Source: Candidatus Adlerbacteria bacterium
GTDB taxonomy: Bacteria > Patescibacteriota > Minisyncoccia > Phycocordibacterales > SBAW01
Length of the DNA: 64,000 bases
NCBI GenBank assembly: GCA_903819895.1
Contig: CAIJFH010000027.1
Coordinates: 1,675 to 65,674, forward strand
Direction of reading: 5' to 3'
Every line of letters begins with the position of its first letter. Positions within the stretch are counted from its first letter, which is position 1. This document shows positions 10,165 through 18,990 of the stretch, piece by piece. Both the position numbers and the translations under genes were made by a program. The notes beneath the pieces are model-generated. The model saw only the letters and a list, made by a program, of their open reading frames with translations, ran no database searches and was not told the origin of the DNA.

Positions 10165-12753
10165 ATGGCTGATAAAAATACAAAAAAAATTGAAGAATCG
10201 GCGCCAATGCCCGAGCGTGTGAACGTGATAGATCGCAACATTTCAACCGAGATGCGCGAGTCGTACCTCGATTACGCAATGTCGGTGATTACGACACGTG
10301 CGCTCCCCGATGTGCGCGATGGTTTGAAGCCCGTGCACCGCCGCATCCTCTACGCGATGCATCGCATGGGGCTCACCCCGGGCGCACGTTTTCGCAAGTC
10401 GGCGGCAGTGGTTGGTGATGTGCTGGGTAAGTACCATCCGCACGGCGATATTTCTGTATACGATGCAATGGTCAAGATGGCGCAAGAGTTCTCGATGCGC
10501 TACCCATTGGTTATTGGCCAAGGAAACTTCGGCTCAATCGACGGCGACTCGGCAGCAGCGATGCGCTACACCGAGGCAAAGATGTCGTCGATGGCGTCGC
10601 TCTTGTTGAACGATCTCGAGAAGGAGACCGTCGACTGGCGCCCCAACTACGACGGCACACTCAAAGAGCCCGAGGTGCTGCCCGCTGCGGTGCCAAATAT
10701 TTTGCTCAACGGTACACTCGGCATCGCCGTTGGTATGGCGACCTCTATCCCGCCACACAACCTCACCGAACTCACCAACGCGCTCACGCATTTGATAGAA
10801 AACCCCGATGCGACGGTCGAGGATTTGATGGAGCATGTCTCGGGCCCCGACTTCCCCACAGGCGCGGTCGCGTTTAATAAAAAGGATTTGCTGCACGCCT
10901 ACACCACCGGCAAGGGCGGCGTCGTGGTGCGCGGCCAGGCCGAAATTGTCGAGGATAAAAAAGGCAACTTCCAAATTATCATCACCTCCATCCCATACCG
11001 CGTCAACAAGTCCGACCTCATTGTCCGCATCGCCGATTTGGTGCGCGATAAAAAAATCGATGGCATCAGAGGGCTCCGCGATGAATCAACCCGCGACATC
11101 CGCGTCGTGGTCGACCTCAAGGTTGGTGCGCATCCACAAAAGGTGCTCAACTTTCTCTACAAGCACACGGCGCTCGAGGACACGTTCCACTTCAACATGG
11201 TCGTCTTGGTCGACGGCGTGCCGCAAACGCTGTCACTCAAAGGGATCCTCCAAGAGTTTATCAAGCACCGCAAGGTGATCGTGAAGCGTCGCACTGAGTA
11301 CGATTTGCGCAAAGCGCAAGAGCGCGAGCACATTTTGCTTGGCCTCACCAAAGCCCTCGATCATATCGACGAGGTGATCAAGACGATTCGCGCGTCCAAG
11401 GATGTGCCGGACGCAGCAGCCAACCTCATCAAAAAGTTTAAATTTTCCGACCTGCAAGCGGCAGCGATTTTGGAGATGCGCTTGTCGCGTCTTGCAAACC
11501 TCGAGCGCAAGAAGGTCGAAGACGAGTTAGCAGAAGTACAGGCGATGATCGCTGAGTGGACCGCGCTCTTGGGGAGTGAAAAGAAGATGCTCAGTGTCGT
11601 CAAAACAGAAATTGTCGCTGCGGGCGAGAAGTTTGGCGATGATCGCAACACCAAAGTCATTAAGGGTGCCGCAGGTATCATCAACGTCGAGGACTTGGTG
11701 CCCGAGGAGGAGCAGGTGCTCGTCCTCACCTCCGGCGGCTACGTCAAACGCACCAACCCCGAGGAGTACAAACGCCAAAAGCGCGGCGGCGTTGGTGTGA
11801 TTGACCTTGATACAAAGGAGGAGGATTTTGTCACCACGGTCCTCACCACCTCGAGCCACAGCGACCTGCTCTTTTTTACCGACCTTGGCAAAGCGTATCA
11901 AATCAAGATGTACGAGCTCCCCGAAGGGAAGCGTTCGACCAAAGGCAAGGCGATCGTCAACTTTTTGTCGATTGGTGACAACGAAAAGGTCACGAGTGTC
12001 TTGCCGATGCGCCTCTCTGCACACTCGACCAAGGGTAAAAAATCTGCCAAGGCGGATGGTGCGTCTGGCAAGGATGATGCTGCCGAGGGATCGCAGTCGC
12101 TGTACATGATCACCAAGTTGGGTGTCGCCAAGAAAGTTGATGCGACCGCGTTCCACGATGTGCGAAGATCGGGGCTCATCGCGATGCGGCTCGACGCAGG
12201 CGACCAGCTCATCGCAGCGCTGTTGGTGGGTAAGGGGGATGAAATTGTCCTCACCTCGCAGCGTGGGCAAGCGATCCGCTTTAAAGAAAGTGACATCCGC
12301 TCGATGGGTCGGACAGCCGGCGGCGTGCGCGGTATGAAGCTCGACAAAGACGATGTTATTGTCGGCGCCGATGTGGTGCGCCACGGCGACAAGGGGGCAG
12401 AGATCCTCGTCGTGACAAAGAATGGCTACGGCAAGACGACGCCTGCGAAAGAATATAAAACGCAGAATCGCGGCGGCTCGGGAATCAAGACGGTCAAAGT
12501 AACGCCAAAGACGGGGCAGCTGATCGCCGCGCGCGTGGTCTCAAAAGTTGGCGGCAATGCAAAGTCGTCTGGCAACGGCGACACGTCCGCCGACAACATC
12601 AACGACATGAGCGAGCTCGTCGTCGTCTCGCAAAAAGGCCAAGTGATCCGCACCGAGCTCTCCGAGATCCCATCCCTCTCGCGCGACACCCAAGGCGTCC
12701 GTATCATGAAACTCCGCGACGGCGACGCCATTGCGAGCTTTGTTTGTTTGTAA
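10165..12753 (+). CDS. gyrA: DNA gyrase subunit A
   Basis: [26 protein letters not shown], the catalytic Tyr region [11 protein letters not shown], GyrA-box and C-terminal beta-pinwheel repeats are present. The product is 862 aa. Confidence 0.95.
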
Positions 12754-12760
12754 AATCTTT

Positions 12761-13012
12761 ATGCTTGATAGAGAAAGTGACAATAAAATTATTGGTACAT
12801 TAGGTGCAACCAATACGAATCTCTTTCAAATACAGGGTACTCTTTCTAGTTTAGCGAGACAGTTTTCAGACTTAAACAAAAATCTGAGGGATTCGGCTGA
12901 ATCGTCCACAAAACTTACGAAAGCAATTAAAAACGTAACATTGTTTGGTGTCGGTGTCGCCGTTCTTTCTTTATGTTGGGATATTTACAAGACACTGTTT
13001 CTTCATGCCTAA
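12761..13012 (+). CDS. Hypothetical small protein with C-terminal TM helix, in AT-rich islet
   Basis: The ORF is AT-rich (about 38% GC against a host of about 58%). The product is MLDRESDNKIIGTLGATNTNLFQIQ...VTLFGVGVAVLSLCWDIY. Confidence 0.4.
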   Translation: MLDRESDNKIIGTLGATNTNLFQIQGTLSSLARQFSDLNKNLRDSAESSTKLTKAIKNVTLFGVGVAVLSLCWDIYKTLFLHA

Positions 13013-13020
13013 ATAGTCAT

Positions 13021-13302
13021 ATGAGGCAAGGACCAAAAAATATTTGTTCTCCACTGGAGCGTAAAACCCCCACACAATATTCAGGGCTGCAGCCAGATAG
13101 TGTAGATTTTCAGGAGTATTTTGATGCCTGGAGTTTGGAGGAACAGATAATGTGTGTGCGTTATGTAGAAAGAGATGCTTTTCGCTACGCATTTAAATTT
13201 GCGTTAGTTGTGGGCTTGATAATTGGTTTTTGCTTTGGCTTTCTTCTCGCTCAGAATCATTATTCTCGTGTGTTGATTGAGAAAGTCTTTGCTGGTCAGT
13301 AG
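13021..13302 (+). CDS. Hypothetical small membrane protein, AT-rich islet
   Basis: The product is MRQGPKNICSPLERK...FKFALVVGLIIGFCFGFLLAQNHY (C-terminal TM). It sits immediately upstream of the Fic/DOC gene. Confidence 0.35.
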   Translation: MRQGPKNICSPLERKTPTQYSGLQPDSVDFQEYFDAWSLEEQIMCVRYVERDAFRYAFKFALVVGLIIGFCFGFLLAQNHYSRVLIEKVFAGQ

Positions 13303-13408
13303 AAAATAGGTGCCAAGTATTTCTTCTGGCGCGTGTAGTAAGCAAGGCGTCGCCTTGCTAAAAAGCAAAAAAGCAAACCGTTGTCGAATTTTTTGCTATA
13401 CTTACGGT

Positions 13409-14392
13409 ATGGTACAGGCGAAGAAGAAAACAGGCGGGGTGGTGCTGTATCAGGCAAAGAACGGAGCGATTGAGCTGCGGGGTGATGCGTCACGCGAGAC
13501 GATTTGGGCGAACCGTATGCAGATGGCAGAAATCTTCGGCGTTAATCCACAGGCGATAACCAAGCATATCCAGCATATCTATGAGGAAAAAGAGTTGGAT
13601 CGAAAGGCAACTAGTTCCAAATTGGAACTAGTTCAAAACGAGTCTGGCAGAACAGTAAAACGACAGGTTGATATCTACAACTTGGACGTTATTATTGCTG
13701 TCGGCTATCGAATCAACTCGGTGATGGGGACAAACTTTCGCATCTGGGCGACCAAGACGCTGCGGGAGCATATTACAAAGGGGTACACCATCAACCGCAA
13801 GCAGATTGCCAAGAACTACGACGCGTTTATGAAAGTGGTTGGCGATGTGCAGGCGCTCTTGCCCGAGCATGTCGCACTCGACCCCAAAGGCGTGCTCGAA
13901 CTTATCAAAGAGTTTGCGGGCACGTGGGTGTCGCTCGACGCATACGACAAAGAGACACTCTCGACCAAAGGTGTCACCAAGAAGAGTGTGCGGCTTACTG
14001 GCGAGGAGTTGCGCACAGCGATTAGTGATCTCAAAAAAGAGTTGCTGCGCAAAGGCGAGGCAACAGAGCTCTGTGCTGCCGAGCGCGCGGCGGGGAGTGT
14101 CGAGGGAATTGTCGGCAACGTGATGCAATCCTTCGGCGGCAAGCCGGTTTACGCGACCGTCGAGGAGAAGGCAGCGCACCTCTTGTACTTTATGGTCAAA
14201 AATCATCCCTTTACCGACGGCAACAAGCGGTCGGGCGCTTTCGCGTTCGTGTGGTTCTTGCGAAAGACAGGCAGCCGTGGGAGCCGCAACATCAACCCAG
14301 CAGCGCTCACGGCACTGACATTACTTATTGCCGAAAGTAACCCGCACAAAAAAGATCAGATGGTCGCTCTGGTGACGCAGATGCTCAAATAG
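13409..14392 (+). CDS. Fic/DOC family protein with RhuM-like N-terminal domain
   Basis: The Fic motif HPFTDGNKRSGAFAFVWFL (HPFx[DE]GNxR) is present. The N-terminus (LYQAKNGAIELRGDASRETIWANRMQMAEIFGVNPQAITKHIQHIY) resembles virulence protein RhuM. The start is ATG 13409 (ORF from 13310). Confidence 0.75.
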   Translation: MVQAKKKTGGVVLYQAKNGAIELRGDASRETIWANRMQMAEIFGVNPQAITKHIQHIYEEKELDRKATSSKLELVQNESGRTVKRQVDIYNLDVIIAVGYRINSVMGTNFRIWATKTLREHITKGYTINRKQIAKNYDAFMKVVGDVQALLPEHVALDPKGVLELIKEFAGTWVSLDAYDKETLSTKGVTKKSVRLTGEELRTAISDLKKELLRKGEATELCAAERAAGSVEGIVGNVMQSFGGKPVYATVEEKAAHLLYFMVKNHPFTDGNKRSGAFAFVWFLRKTGSRGSRNINPAALTALTLLIAESNPHKKDQMVALVTQMLK

Positions 14393-15690: not shown

Positions 15691-15768
15691 CGCACCCTTA
15701 GCTCAGTTGGTAGAGCACACCCTTCACACGGGTGGGGTCGCAGGTTCGAGTCCTGCAGGGTGCACCAC
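15691..15768 (+). tRNA. tRNA-Val (anticodon CAC), CCA encoded
   Basis: The acceptor GCACCCT/AGGGTGC, D-arm GCTCAGTTGGTAGAGC, anticodon stem-loop CACCC-TTCACAC-GGGTG, T-arm GCAGGTTCGAGTCCTGC and a 3' ACCA are present. By my reading there are 2 extra nt between the D-stem and anticodon stem, possibly a transcription artefact of mine. Confidence 0.8.
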
Positions 15769-15914
15769 CCTGAGCAAGCAACCTGCGTTGCTTGCGTCAG
15801 GACGAGAAAGGCGGAGCATGTCGAGCCCAGCAGGGCGAGGCAGCGAGCCGGGGTCGCGGTCGAGGATGCGCGACGGCGCAGACGAGAACCGTGACCGAGT
15901 CGTTAGCAATAGTG

Positions 15915-15985
15915 CGGGCTGTAGTATACCGGTAGTACGCGCGCTTCGGGTGCGTGAAGACCGGGTTCGATTCCCGGCAGCCCGA
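15915..15985 (+). tRNA. tRNA-Pro (anticodon CGG), CCA not encoded
   Basis: The acceptor CGGGCTG/CAGCCCG, anticodon stem-loop CGCGC-TTCGGGT-GCGTG (G37) and T-arm CCGGGTTCGATTCCCGG are present. Confidence 0.75.
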
Positions 15986-16013
15986 CAAGTAGTGTAGAGT
16001 AAGTGAGACCGAG

Positions 16014-16055
16014 TTCGACCCGCCTGCCGGCGGGCAGGTTCCCGGCAGCCCGACA
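16014..16055 (+). terminator. Hairpin plus T-run after tRNA-Pro; contains second copy of tRNA-Pro 3' end (TTCCCGGCAGCCCGACA)
   Basis: The hairpin CTGCCGG-cgggcaggttc-CCGGCAG is followed by CCCGACAGAG and then TTTTTTT (16049-16055). Confidence 0.4.
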
Positions 16056-16102
16056 GAGTTTTTTTGTGTTACATTAATACGCGTGCCACATCGGCACGTT
16101 AG

Positions 16103-16173
16103 GGCCCATAGTTAAGTGGTAAAACGCTGCATTCGCATTGCAGAGGCGCGAGTCCGATTCTCGCTGGGTCCAC
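16103..16173 (+). tRNA. tRNA-Ala (anticodon CGC), G3:U70 present, CCA not encoded
   Basis: The acceptor GGGCCCA/TGGGTCC has a G3-U70 wobble. The anticodon stem-loop is CTGCA-TTCGCAT-TGCAG and the T-arm is GCGAGTCCGATTCTCGC. Confidence 0.8.
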
Positions 16174-16257
16174 AAATCATTGACAGATAAGAACATTCTG
16201 TTCTACATTGTTTGTAGACGATCTCCGACACAACCTCGCAAGAAAGGATTCTGCGTT

Positions 16258-17553
16258 ATGTACAGAGAGTTAAAGTCTCCTGTTGCGGTCCAACTGGAAC
16301 TAACGACAGGATGCAATGAAAGGTGCGTCCATTGCTACAACCACTGGAGAAGATCCTCCGAAGAAGACAGGACTTTGACCGAGGATGACGTCCGGCGAAT
16401 CATCGAGAACCTCAAGGATAGCGAAGTTCCAAACCTGCTCATCACAGGCGGAGAACCGATGCTCTACCCCGACCTATTGATCCGCACACTTGAACTTGGG
16501 AGGGAAGCTGGCCTCAAGTGCTCGCTGAACTCCAATTTGACGCTCGTGACGCCAGAGCTTGCTCGAGAGCTGAAAAGGCTCAAGGTCGGCATACTGACAT
16601 CGATCCTATCTTTTGACGAGAGACTGCACGATAAGCTCACAACCGTGCCTGGTTCCTTCGACATGCTCGTCAAGGGAATCAGGTTGGTCAGGGAATACGA
16701 AATCCCCGTTGGCGCGAACATGGTCGTGATGCAAATGAATGTGGACCAAATCTACGAGACGGGTAGGTTTATTCATAGCATGGGCGTGACTGCGTTTCGG
16801 GCAACGAAAGTACATCCCGCCCAAGGATCCCCATGCTTCGAGAGGATCAAGCTCCCTTCGGAACGCATTGTCGACATTTTCGACACCTTGATTAGGTTGC
16901 GGGATGAGCTCGGACTCGACGTCGATTCTCTGACTACCTACCCCACCTGCCTCCTCAAGGATATGAGCCGCTACGGCCAATTCGTCTCGAGAAGGAGCTG
17001 TAGCGCTGGAAAGACTGGCTGCACAATCGGCGCGGACGGACAAGTTCGCCCGTGCGGTCATTCCGACAACACCTACGGCAACTCTATTGTCGAGCCGCTT
17101 CTCGAAATCTGGCCTAGATTGCGGGAGTGGCGAGACGGCTCGCTGTTACCAACGGAATGCAAAGAATGCAAGCATGTTATTCAATGCAGCGGCGGCTGTC
17201 GTATGGATTGCAAGCACTACGGCAACATCAGTGGGATGGATCCATACGCCCCGGGCAAAGACTTCGCGTACACACCCCAACAACGAGAGGAGGTCACGCC
17301 TCTTGATCCTGAATCGGAGCTGGTCGTTAACTCGACCCTTCGCCTGAGAATCGAGACATTCGGCACAGCACTGATTGTCGATGGGAACTTCAAATCTATC
17401 GTCACCTCTGACACGGCCGAATTGTTGGAGCAGCTACGGAATGCAACTTTCACGCTCGGCTCAATCTCTGAGGAGTATGGTCTTGAGGTGGACATGCTGT
17501 GCAAGTTCTTTGCCAGCTTGCACGCCTTGAGAGTCGTCTACTTTGCCAGCTAG
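16258..17553 (+). CDS. Radical SAM enzyme with C-terminal SPASM domain (peptide-modifying or AnSME-like maturase)
   Basis: The ORF has a GGAG-type RBS (gaaagga). LELTTGCNERCVHCYN carries the CX3CX2C motif and LLITGGEPML the GGEP SAM-binding motif. A C-terminal Cys cluster (CSAGKTGCTIGADGQVRPCGH...CKECKHVIQCSGGCRMDC) matches SPASM. The start is ATG 16258 (ORF from 16138 overlaps tRNA-Ala). GC is lower than the flanking DNA. Confidence 0.85.
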   Translation: MYRELKSPVAVQLELTTGCNERCVHCYNHWRRSSEEDRTLTEDDVRRIIENLKDSEVPNLLITGGEPMLYPDLLIRTLELGREAGLKCSLNSNLTLVTPELARELKRLKVGILTSILSFDERLHDKLTTVPGSFDMLVKGIRLVREYEIPVGANMVVMQMNVDQIYETGRFIHSMGVTAFRATKVHPAQGSPCFERIKLPSERIVDIFDTLIRLRDELGLDVDSLTTYPTCLLKDMSRYGQFVSRRSCSAGKTGCTIGADGQVRPCGHSDNTYGNSIVEPLLEIWPRLREWRDGSLLPTECKECKHVIQCSGGCRMDCKHYGNISGMDPYAPGKDFAYTPQQREEVTPLDPESELVVNSTLRLRIETFGTALIVDGNFKSIVTSDTAELLEQLRNATFTLGSISEEYGLEVDMLCKFFASLHALRVVYFAS

Positions 17554-17661
17554 CACTTGTACTAAAATTGTGCTAGAAACAAACAAGAAAGGAGGCATCC
17601 TAGGAGTTCCCGAGAAGGTTAAGCCGACCACTAAACAACGTAAACAGCGAGGAGATAAGCC

Positions 17662-17778
17662 GTGAAGACACTGAATCTGGGTTTCGTCTCGATGACCACT
17701 ATCAAGGGGCGGGAACCCCAACCCATCCTTGGTCTGGATAGTTGCGACTGTTGGTGTGACTACGACAAGGGGAACTAA
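17662..17778 (+). CDS. Candidate RiPP precursor peptide, 38 aa from GTG (or 28 aa from ATG 17692): MKTLNLGFVSMTTIKGREPQPILGLDSCDCWCDYDKGN
   Basis: This ORF is not in the provided track. GAGGAG lies 7 nt before GTG 17662, and an in-frame ATG is at 17692. The C-terminus is Cys-rich (CDCWC). It sits 109 nt downstream of the rSAM/SPASM gene and is followed by two hairpins (17790-17859). Confidence 0.45.
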   Translation: MKTLNLGFVSMTTIKGREPQPILGLDSCDCWCDYDKGN

Positions 17779-17789
17779 TCCCCCAATGA

Positions 17790-17859
17790 CTGCGCATGAA
17801 TCCTTATGCGCAGAACCGCCGGCTAACGGAAACGTTAGCCGGCTTTCCATTTAATTTTA
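17790..17859 (+). terminator. Tandem hairpins (CTGCGCAT-gaatcctt-ATGCGCAG; CCGGCTAACG-gaaa-CGTTAGCCGG + T-rich) after candidate precursor peptide; possible attenuator/terminator
   Basis: Two perfect inverted repeats are seen directly. The second is followed by CTTTCCATTTAATTTTA. Confidence 0.4.
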
Positions 17860-17881
17860 TATATCATATACTGGAATATCT

Positions 17882-18730
17882 ATGAAAAAGATTATTTTAA
17901 AGGAGGATTTTGATGCAGAGATGCGTATTTTCCTTAATTTCTTGAACAGCAAAGAATATCCACAACATCGGAATATCATATTTTCTTGCTTCCCTGCATT
18001 GAAAGAAAAACTCGAGGCGAATGTCACAGATGAAAAATCGGTTGTTACGGCATTCATACAAGAGAAAAGGACACACAACGAACAAGCTATCCGGCAATCG
18101 GTTGCCTTTGTTAAGCATGAGCTAGAACAAAAAGGAGAGAAGACGTTAGAAATACTCGCCCAGCTGATGGATTATGTATGGGAATCTCAAGAGGATCCCT
18201 ACTTCTTGGTACCAACCATTTTCCCTCTGTCTCCCTTTAATAAGGATACATTCTTTTTCTCGATATACCCATCACTGCAAGGCAAAACAGAATATCCGAG
18301 AGTGCTGGCAGTTTCAGCTCACGAGATATCTCACATGATACTTCTCGACATCTTGAAAGAGCGAAACATACAGATGGGACAAGAACTGGTCTATTTTGTA
18401 AAAGAACTGATTGCTCCGGTGTTGGTATATCAAGATGATTTCGACGGTATGTTCAAGAAACAAATCGTGGGAAACTACAACGTGTTGGAGGTCTATTTTG
18501 AAGAAGGCGGAAAGTCGGTAACGGCTTTCGATTATTTTCTTGCTATGTTCGCAAATAACAGAGCTGAGGGCAAGAAATTCAATGCATTCCTCGATAATAT
18601 GATCTCTGTTTGTAGAAAAATAGAGCAGGAGATACAGGACAAGAGAGCGTTTGATGACGAATACGGCACACGAATACTAAAAGAGCCGGAACTACTGGAG
18701 AAATTTAGGGAGCCTATCGTGTTGATGTAA
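17882..18730 (+). CDS. HExxH-motif protein (putative zinc metallopeptidase), AT-rich gene
   Basis: The motif AVSAHEISHMILLDIL is present in the product. GC is about 38%, far below the host. No other recognisable domain is present. The gene is co-located with the rSAM/SPASM and peptide genes. Confidence 0.55.
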   Translation: MKKIILKEDFDAEMRIFLNFLNSKEYPQHRNIIFSCFPALKEKLEANVTDEKSVVTAFIQEKRTHNEQAIRQSVAFVKHELEQKGEKTLEILAQLMDYVWESQEDPYFLVPTIFPLSPFNKDTFFFSIYPSLQGKTEYPRVLAVSAHEISHMILLDILKERNIQMGQELVYFVKELIAPVLVYQDDFDGMFKKQIVGNYNVLEVYFEEGGKSVTAFDYFLAMFANNRAEGKKFNAFLDNMISVCRKIEQEIQDKRAFDDEYGTRILKEPELLEKFREPIVLM

Positions 18731-18990
18731 AGGGTTTTCACCACTCTAATCCAATACACTCATTGTGTATCTCTTGTTGCGCATCCGCTAGGCGCACTCT
18801 AGGGCTTTTCGTAGCATAGAGCTGCTCTGGTAATACTCCCAGAATCGGGAAATATAGCTTTTTACAGAGTCCAATGTTTTAATGGCTGTGTCCACTACTT
18901 CGCTCACTGTTTACAGACAGTCGCCGTGTTTCTTTTTTGGCGTAATTCATGTACGCTGCCATCGGCTACGCACAAACAAGGAGAAAAACG

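Follow-up and report, generated by a model that had tools for sequence, protein, structure and literature searches.

Genes at the locus

The DNA analysed here (the window) is a 64-kb stretch of a Candidatus Adlerbacteria contig, in which a cluster of three tRNA genes is followed by a variable gene islet. Downstream of gyrA came a stretch of low GC content carrying a RhuM/Fic gene, then DUF1360 and a CAAX-type protease gene, and then the three tRNAs, which were followed by a radical S-adenosylmethionine (rSAM)/SPASM gene, a gene for a 282-aa protein and the atp operon. GyrA (10165–12753) was 74–94% identical to homologues in metagenome-assembled genomes (MAGs) of Candidatus Adlerbacteria, Nomurabacteria and Paceibacterota, and the genome therefore belongs to the Patescibacteria (candidate phyla radiation, CPR). 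As the initial annotation had stated, the cluster consists of tRNA-Val, tRNA-Pro and tRNA-Ala; the three genes scored 55–70 bits against the Rfam tRNA family, in agreement with ARAGORN. The features of the cluster were as follows:

15692–15767, forward strand: tRNA-Val(CAC), CCA encoded (ARAGORN; Rfam RF00005, 69.9 bits)
15915–15986, forward strand: intact tRNA-Pro(CGG), CCA not encoded; 15987 is the discriminator-adjacent base (ARAGORN, Rfam)
15971–15987, forward strand: first copy of the 17-mer TTCCCGGCAGCCCGACA, the 3′ end of the intact tRNA-Pro(CGG)
15988–16002, forward strand: 15-nt linker AGTAGTGTAGAGTAA between the intact tRNA-Pro and its truncated copy
16003–16018, forward strand: GTGAGACCGAGTTCGA, putative variable loop, 5′ strand of the T-stem and start of the T-loop of the truncated tRNA-Pro (from alignment to 15954–15970)
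16019–16038, forward strand: 20-nt GC palindrome CCCGCCTGCCGGCGGGCAGG, which interrupts the T-loop of the truncated copy
16039–16055, forward strand: second copy of the 17-mer, the tail of the truncated tRNA-Pro, followed by GAG, a T-run and the tRNA-Ala leader
16056–16101, forward strand: presumed ancestral trailer of tRNA-Pro and leader of tRNA-Ala, including a T7 run at 16059–16065
16102–16173, forward strand: tRNA-Ala(CGC) with G3:U70 (ARAGORN, Rfam); the variable islet has its left edge at the 3′ end of this gene

A broken second copy of tRNA-Pro

The 17-mer TTCCCGGCAGCCCGACA spans the last two bases of the T-loop, the 3′ strand of the T-stem, the 3′ strand of the acceptor stem, the discriminator and CA. 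It occurred exactly twice in the window even when two mismatches were allowed, with no third copy, an outcome given by none of 100 shuffles. Both copies were present, in the same gene arrangement, in three assemblies of the same species. The exact repeat had been noticed in the initial annotation, with the second copy placed at 16029–16045 after a gap of 55 nt; it lies at 16039–16055, so that 51 nt separate the two copies (68 nt from start to start). This interval is made up of the 15-nt linker, 16 nt of tRNA-like sequence and the 20-nt palindrome. The tRNA-like part, GTGAGACCGAGTTCGA, matched the 17 nt preceding the 17-mer in tRNA-Pro with 15 identities, one gap and one mismatch, a score reached by 12 of 5000 shuffles, and the match stopped exactly at the 17-mer junction. 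The second 17-mer is the tail of a broken, 5′-truncated second copy of tRNA-Pro(CGG). The true duplication comprises approximately 33 nt of tRNA-derived sequence 15 nt behind the intact gene (segment 16003–16055, including the palindrome).

No 5′ fragment of tRNA-Pro was found in the spacer between tRNA-Val and tRNA-Pro. The linker AGTAGTGTAGAGTAA resembled the leader and D-arm of tRNA-Pro weakly and not significantly (1188 of 5000 shuffles reached the score). A leader duplication, considered as a sign of tandem gene duplication, was rejected, as it was not significant against shuffles. There was no recombinase between the copies of the 17-mer, which enclose 51 nt and no gene, or in the gene table around them, which covered approximately 10 kb to each side of the rSAM gene.

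Comparison with the nearest relatives

Two related contigs, L098 and L099, encoded a CAAX protein 86% identical to that of the window (DNA 82%) and carried DUF1360–CAAX, then a tRNA-Val of reversed orientation, and then tRNA-Pro and tRNA-Ala. The tRNA-Pro region was 97.4% identical to that of L098, with the mismatches, by eye, outside the gene body. In both contigs the 3′ end of tRNA-Pro was single and was followed by CCAGAG..TTTTTTGTGTTAAATTAATAC..tRNA-Ala, which is the flank of the second copy in the window (16039–16174 versus L098 1729–1874, 91% identity). Because the flank after the single tRNA-Pro of L098 is the flank after the second copy, the window has 68 extra bases. The homology with L098 (blastn) ended at 16174, in the last bases of tRNA-Ala.

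The initial annotation had embedded the second 17-mer in a terminator-like hairpin. The hairpin lies upstream of this copy, the 17-mer is outside the stem, and the T-run follows only approximately 20 nt past the hairpin. An intrinsic terminator at 16019–16065 was rejected, since the fold was no better than that of shuffles (z = +0.7), the T7 run is remote from the stem, and a terminator scan did not report a hairpin at the tRNA-Pro fragment. A GC hairpin and a downstream T7 run are present, and they could form a functional RNA signal that ends tRNA-Val/Pro transcription, or a tRNA-like minihelix that guides processing. We consider such a signal very improbable, since the stability of the fold lay within the shuffles, the scan found no canonical terminator, and L098 kept the T-run and the flank without repeat or hairpin.

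tRNA fragments across Patescibacteria

A metagenome scan with the 28-mer at the 3′ end of tRNA-Pro returned at least 120 loci, carrying tRNA-Pro with the anticodon CGG, GGG or TGG. Among the 120 loci listed, at least 14 had an additional 3′ fragment behind an intact tRNA-Pro. The fragment in L150 started at the same tRNA position as that of the window and likewise had a palindrome in its T-loop. The trailer AGAG accompanied tRNA-Pro(CGG) or a displaced 3′ end in L142, L115, L134 and L145, and did not accompany tRNA-Pro(GGG). Other tRNAs (Leu, Lys, Arg, Gly and Cys) in gyrA-anchored genomes also had 3′ fragments within 400 nt. Judged by these loci, extra 3′ fragments beside tRNA genes are a common and recurrent type of scar in Patescibacteria.

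Several loci were nested, with a 5′ fragment of tRNA-Pro, a complete tRNA-Pro and a 3′ fragment in succession (L145, L134, L118, L154, L126 and L172; also L102 and L153). In L172, two identical 5′ fragments preceded the complete gene and one 3′ fragment followed it, and in L126 and L172 the 5′ fragment extended through the anticodon. The outer 3′ fragment of L134 and L145 was followed by AGAG and tRNA-Ala, as in the window. The inner complete tRNA-Pro was flanked by a complementary leader/trailer helix, and Rfam detected the inner tRNAs only. The layout looks as if a unit carrying a tRNA had been inserted in the anticodon loop of a tRNA-Pro already present. Rfam searches of nine related loci detected only tRNAs and no known ribozyme or intron. 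A leader/trailer helix of 10–13 bp around tRNA-Pro(CGG) was seen by eye in L142, L126, L179, L115 and L111; its sequence differed among genomes while the pairing was kept, which suggests a processing stalk. The tRNA-Pro of the window has no such helix.

Palindromes similar to that in the window were also recurrent. CCTGCC..GGCAGG and TCTGCC..GGCAGA lay within tRNA fragments in L118, L134, L150 and L153, and downstream of a tRNA-Pro fragment in L121. The variants CCTGCC(TGCC)GGCAGGCAGG, TCTGCC..GGCAGA and TCCGCC..GGCGGA recurred inside or beside tRNA fragments on unrelated contigs, and L211 and L107 differed by two such palindromic hairpins. These GC palindromes may represent a miniature palindromic insertion element.

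Origin of the tRNA-Pro fragment

With slightly less than even confidence, we favour the displacement of the original 3′ part of tRNA-Pro by 68 nt through a small insertion in the gene or a recombination event there, because 3′-only fragments recur in the phylum and because the AGAG trailer after the second copy is of the tRNA-Pro(CGG) type. We infer the following order of events and mechanism. A short DNA bearing a replacement 3′ part would have recombined into, or inserted in, the tRNA-Pro gene, and the original 3′ part would have been shifted 68 nt downstream while keeping its ancestral flank. The insert would then have been lost almost wholly, with 15 nt left, and the 20-nt GC palindrome would later have landed in the displaced T-loop. 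The intact upstream gene supplies tRNA-Pro, and the fragment is most likely a functionless relic. The displacement would follow the same logic as the formation of attL and attR by tRNA-targeting elements. The initial annotation had regarded the repeat as a possible integration scar. The presence of a partial tRNA 3′ duplicate of the recombination type, with a single copy and the same flank in L098, agrees with that idea, whereas its assignment to the rSAM islet does not hold (see below).

Several points weigh against displacement. There is neither an integrase nor foreign DNA between the copies, and 51 nt is far below the size of known integrative elements. The almost complete loss of an element without the loss of a repeat would be an awkward step, and the covariance model R1 described below, which found nothing in the spacer between tRNA-Pro and tRNA-Ala (≤1.4 bits), gave no family for the supposed insert. 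L098 and L099 are short contigs, and the 68-nt indel may be either a gain in the lineage of the window or a loss in L098. Additionally, a tandem duplication of leader and tRNA with internal deletions aligns equally tidily.

Such a decayed paralogue is a serious rival, although we consider it rather unlikely. The fragment would be what remains of a complete second tRNA-Pro, either a tandem CGG duplicate or a GGG gene between Pro(CGG) and Ala(CGC), from which deletions would have removed the acceptor 5′ strand and the anticodon arm; L098 would have lost the copy via recombination between the identical 3′ ends. Arrays of the required kind exist, with Val-Pro(CGG)-Pro(GGG)-Ala(CGC) in L142, L126, L111 and L148 and Val-Pro(CGG)-Pro(GGG) in L179, a locus that ends before any Ala gene. 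The isoacceptors have the 3′ 28-mer in common, and leader plus tRNA is globally colinear with linker plus fragment (CAA-TAGTG/CAAGTAGTG, TGTAG, AGTA). However, the 5′ similarities did not exceed those of shuffles, as stated above, and the trailer after the second copy is of the Pro(CGG) and not of the Pro(GGG) type. A decayed paralogue would require at least two internal deletions and one insertion, whereas the common pattern elsewhere is a 3′-only fragment without a 5′ part.

A structured element behind tRNA genes

The spacer behind tRNA-Val contained a non-coding structured element, designated E, with the following parts:

15768–15904, forward strand: putative structured element E trailing tRNA-Val (model R1 match 15788–15904, 57.7 bits, E value 2e-14)
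15769–15801, forward strand: hairpin of E
15798–15808, forward strand: segment antisense to the T-arm of tRNA-Val
15809–15817, forward strand: conserved block AGGCGGAGC
15843–15859, forward strand: conserved block GCGAGCCGGGGTCGCGG
15889–15896, forward strand: closing block CCGTGACC

Elements of this kind, approximately 105–130 nt long, were located between many tRNAs and their 3′ fragments (related copies for example in L102, L015, L005, L059, L151 and L213). The consensus order was a hairpin, a segment antisense to the element's own tRNA (T-arm or 3′ end), GAGGCGSAGC, a variable hairpin, GCGAG.CGGGGUCGCG, a further hairpin, often with a GACGR loop, YGUGAC(C/G) and a direct repeat of the 3′ part of the tRNA. 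The invariant core, CGAG.CGGGGUCG ... GUGAC in a three-stem fold, was also present in the tRNA-Val unit. Of the terminal repeat, this unit keeps only CGAGTC at its end, six nucleotides copied from the T-loop of tRNA-Val.

A covariance model (R1) was built from an 18-sequence alignment with a three-stem consensus, the window copy being part of the seed. R1 detected 28 copies in the gyrA loci (1.39 Mb), 7 in the tRNA-Pro loci (0.58 Mb) and 2 at other sites; in these searches, 17 further members lay outside the seed. In all, 54 copies were counted in approximately 2.2 Mb of DNA from Patescibacteria. In an alignment of 28 copies, 94.5% of the pair cells were standard pairs, and compensatory changes occurred in 13 of the 17 pairs. 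The covariation score was 0.546, compared to 0.195 for shuffles (reached by 0 of 500) and at most 0.09 for slid controls, in alignments fitted to the model and loci selected via gyrA or tRNA-Pro. G.U pairs were frequent (26 of 28 copies at one pair and 11 of 28 at another), which indicates that it is the tRNA strand that folds. In 26 of 34 copies, the element started 12–94 nt behind a tRNA (Lys, Leu, Cys, Tyr, Arg, Gly, Ala or Val) on the same strand, and in six more it started 135–812 nt behind one; several of these six were second units in tandem.

The terminal repeats were 18–26 exact nucleotides long in five copies and shorter in the rest, and they matched the element's own tRNA even where orthologous tRNAs differed between species. 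Since the 5′ segment is antisense to, and the 3′ end a copy of, the same part of the tRNA, the antisense segment can pair with either the tRNA or the copy. The predicted duplex energy of the 5′ segment was −15.9 kcal/mol for own pairs and −11.7 kcal/mol for cross pairs (p = 0.007), in a crude test with some segments mis-parsed; the own-tRNA specificity of the terminal repeat was weak in an equally crude test (p = 0.09). No Rfam 15 family other than tRNA was detected at 11–21 kb of the window (cmscan, E ≤ 1), apart from sub-threshold noise. E is apparently a new, conserved structured RNA motif with strong covariation and no Rfam match. Full-text literature searches aimed at E or the nested tRNA-Pro genes found no description, which is not proof of novelty.

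E might be an undescribed functional class of structured RNA from tRNA 3′ trailers, with the short tRNA 3′ duplications, including the tRNA-Pro fragment, as its products or relics and not as integrase scars. We consider this conceivable, though somewhat doubtful. If true, E would be a toggle around a three-way junction that controls tRNA maturation or acts as a tRNA-specific guide or decoy. A functional E would be new tRNA biology in organisms known for their reduced RNA-processing machinery.

The tRNA-Pro fragment could also be a vestigial E unit that lost its core by deletion and retained the linker, GTGAGACC (cf. the closing GUGACC of the family) and the terminal repeat. A full unit lies 150 nt upstream, after tRNA-Val, and E units close with 18–26-nt exact repeats of the 3′ part of their own tRNA. 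L115 provides a precedent, with a remnant of approximately 25 nt (AAGCGGAGC..CGTGACC) after tRNA-Val, and related units that have an antisense T-arm and end in a repeat are present at other tRNA-Pro loci. Nevertheless, a vestigial unit is improbable. No E core was detectable in the spacer between tRNA-Pro and tRNA-Ala (best score 1.4 bits, filters off), the repeats of E begin at C56 of the T-loop while the window fragment begins in the variable loop, and GTGAGACC is better explained as the tRNA's own GTGAAGACC.

With R1, no element was found behind tRNA-Val in L098 and L099. In L098, tRNA-Val is inverted (1492–1567 versus 15692–15767 in the window) and lacks the trailing element, and the spacers between tRNA-Val and tRNA-Pro share no similarity. 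Tandem copies of E were also present on one IMG/VR contig (L222, 2900–3319), with no tRNA called in the stored stretch and genes that look cellular (serine acetyltransferase, GalE and cytidine deaminase). E thus gave no indication of being carried by phages, as this was the only 'viral' contig with it.

The variable islet behind tRNA-Ala

The region between tRNA-Ala and the atp operon contained the following features:

16174–18884, forward strand: variable islet with a RiPP-like cassette (RiPP, ribosomally synthesized and post-translationally modified peptide; Pfam, NCBIfam and homologous cassettes with conserved peptides elsewhere)
16180–16209: predicted promoter-like site of the TTGAC type
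16258–17553, forward strand: radical SAM/SPASM gene (Pfam Radical_SAM, Fer4_12 and SPASM)
17662–17778, forward strand: gene for a 38-aa Cys-rich peptide (..LGFVSMTT..CDCWCDYDKGN)
17818–17843: hairpin with a T-tail
17882–18730, forward strand: gene for a 282-aa HExxH protein, a putative peptidase
18885–18895, forward strand: candidate decayed right-hand repeat GCTGTGTCCAC (the end of tRNA-Ala is GCTGGGTCCAC), at a GC step

In L098, tRNA-Ala was followed by the gene for a 530-aa large serine recombinase on the reverse strand (Resolvase, Recombinase and zinc ribbon), the last 24 codons of which are the antisense of tRNA-Ala. A further relative with a 68% identical CAAX protein, the DNA of which was compared only as far as tRNA-Val, kept CAAX, tRNA-Val and atp, and had genes for HD, Sua5/YrdC and glyoxalase proteins and two other genes in between, without rSAM. 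Different genes occupied the interval from the tRNAs to atp in the P0003 relative, L142, L113 and L130, and different intervening genes were also found on distant contigs with tRNA-Pro upstream of atpB (in L142 with the full Val-Pro-Pro-Ala array). Because the genes between tRNA-Ala and atp differ among relatives, this interval is a turnover hotspot in Adlerbacteria-like genomes.

The initial annotation had treated the two 17-mers as att sites, or an old scar, of the element that brought a low-GC rSAM islet, and had placed the boundary of the islet at the tRNA cluster with this repeat. The tRNA cluster does adjoin a real variable region, and a relative has a recombinase there. However, the 17-mer pair cannot delimit the rSAM islet because both copies lie upstream of tRNA-Ala, where they enclose 51 nt, and there is no third copy beyond the islet or elsewhere in the window. 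The divergence from L098 begins at tRNA-Ala and not at tRNA-Pro. Additionally, no attP matching the 17-mer was found in a phage or element: in the eight viral contigs containing the 17-mer, it had no tRNA-like context and no predicted tRNA gene, and these appear to be chance matches in non-tRNA sequence. An att pair belonging to the islet is hardly credible, and the 17-mer is unfit for delimiting it in annotation. The reported absence of an integrase was borne out by the Pfam gene table, which listed no recombinase within approximately 10 kb of the rSAM gene in either direction. In a tblastn search of the window for a serine recombinase remnant, only an artefact antisense to tRNA-Ala was found.

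The edge of variability was directly after tRNA-Ala, and the low GC content reported to begin there held only in part. GC content was 0.51–0.55 over the rSAM gene (16.0–17.5 kb) and dropped to 0.41–0.44 only at 17.5–19.0 kb, compared to 0.55–0.60 in the flanks. The 3′ end of tRNA-Ala was not repeated at ≥18/21 anywhere in the window. At the right-hand side, GCTGTGTCCAC matched the 3′-terminal 11-mer of tRNA-Ala at 10 of 11 positions; the overall match of 14/24 was within the shuffle null, so that the repeat is weak alone. Its position coincides with the rise in GC content at approximately 18.9–19.0 kb.

Homologous cassettes occurred in several other loci. That of L223 was 96% identical and in the same context. 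A 75% identical cassette in L224 (8001–10396) began 324 nt after tRNA-Ala(UGC) and was followed by an approximately 21-nt repeat of the end and trailer of that tRNA, seen by eye and not listed by the repeat finder (seed 9). Cassettes with 68% identity in L225 (8001–10387) and L227 were in unrelated contexts, with direct repeats on their flanks, and a 74% identical rSAM homologue in L226 lay beside a tyrosine integrase (PF00589) with integrase-fragment repeats. The Cys-rich precursor was conserved together with the enzyme, with an LGFVSMTT leader and a C.C.C.CDCWCD core. Against the NCBIfam families of rSAM/SPASM maturases, all 25 listed matches of the window enzyme were below cut-off (best NirJ2, 116 versus 500 bits), and the HExxH protein had no Pfam or NCBIfam match. 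The most plausible reading of the rSAM/peptide/HExxH cassette is that of a portable, RiPP-like accessory island inserted where tRNA-Ala ends. This site upstream of the atp operon is held by a RiPP-like cassette in the window and by a serine recombinase in a relative.

A promoter-like site of the TTGAC type was located upstream of the cassette in each of three lineages (the window, L224 and L225). At the left end of L223 (1–37), from a 95% identical strain, homology started at GTCCACAAATC, the last bases of tRNA-Ala, and the 31 nt upstream were not tRNA-Ala (..GGGTGCCTGTCCAC). This end may reflect an alternative left junction or islands in tandem, or it may be an artefact of the contig end.

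The CAAX/tRNA/atp neighbourhood was present in none of the first 40 gyrA-anchored loci (of 80 species genomes). In these relatives (L001–L080), synteny was kept upstream of gyrA and ended right at the gyrA stop codon; gyrA was rejected as an anchor for testing the islet, as synteny breaks there. A Leu-Lys-Leu-Cys tRNA cluster was found 7–10 kb past gyrA in relatives, where it replaced the content of the window. The stretch after gyrA in the window (12753–14392) had a GC content of 0.38–0.46 at 12.75–13.75 kb, followed by the RhuM/Fic(DOC) gene. L004 had a 100% identical 75-aa RhuM fragment after gyrA, and L012 a 73% copy. Short similarities connected this low-GC stretch with the 5′ region of the rSAM gene (13157–13174 with 16252–16269, and 12938–12958 with 16205–16225; TGCGTTATGTAGAAAGAG / TGCGTTATGTACAGAGAG, 16/18), possibly by chance, as their spacing is not colinear.

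Comparison with known systems

Overall, the locus contains a scar of an ordinary type, which had been wrongly assigned to the islet, and beside it an apparently new RNA motif. Truncated tRNA copies tens of bases from their parent are frequent in Patescibacteria and can mislead island finders and tRNA-based completeness counts. Partial tRNA duplications, attL and attR, are attributed to integrative elements at tRNA and tmRNA genes in the passages of PMC9897764 that refer to Reiter 1989 and Williams 2002; partial tRNA gene duplications by integrative elements are also covered by van der Gulik et al. 2023 (PMC9897764) itself. The window shares with these cases an intact tRNA and a 3′ direct repeat with the original flank, and the site is unduplicated in the relatives L098 and L099. 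In contrast to the kilobases with an integrase of known cases, only 51 nt without a gene lie between the repeats here, and the displaced copy is split by a palindrome.

The islet behind tRNA-Ala resembles the ssrA islands of Dehalococcoides, where the gene of the serine recombinase DsiB overlaps attL/ssrA and the islands, which occur in tandem, insert in the T-loop and have a direct repeat of 20 bp (McMurdie et al. 2011, PMC3146451). The reverse-strand recombinase gene of L098 runs into tRNA-Ala as dsiB overlaps attL/ssrA. Insertion at the 3′ end of a tRNA-like gene, short terminal repeats and a high turnover of downstream genes are further likenesses. The differences are that the target is tRNA-Ala and not tmRNA, that the window has no recombinase and a weak right-hand repeat (10/11), and that the L098 element is seen from its near end only.

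In Archaea, disrupted and fragmented tRNA genes have been attributed to the integration of mobile elements, and heterogeneity within the population at one locus suggests that a mobile element recombined there (Sugahara et al. 2012, PMC3293823). Common to those cases and the loci described here are 5′ or 3′ fragments near a functional copy. The archaeal case involves spliced introns and a 1.8-kb insert bearing a recombinase, whereas the window has neither an intron signal nor a recombinase. The tRNA introns described in Patescibacteria are group I introns of more than 200 nt, in the anticodon loop (35/36) (2026, PMC13011429). E likewise is a tRNA-linked structured RNA of this phylum missed by standard annotation; in contrast to the introns, it sits after the tRNA, is approximately 105–130 nt long and has no Rfam match.

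Small RNAs (sRNAs) also derive from the 3′ external transcribed spacers (3′ETS) of tRNAs, such as 3′ETS-leuZ of E. coli. E may be analogous, as it lies immediately behind a tRNA gene and 3′ processing of the tRNA would presumably release it. It differs in its conserved three-stem core and in its two ends, one antisense to its own tRNA and the other a copy of it; to our knowledge, 3′ETS sRNAs have not been described with such ends.

For the cassette, the closest counterparts are the RiPP cassettes with rSAM/SPASM peptide maturases. The window enzyme scored far below the cut-offs of the named NCBIfam families, and the likeness lies in the rSAM and SPASM domains, the short conserved Cys-rich peptide and the putative HExxH peptidase.

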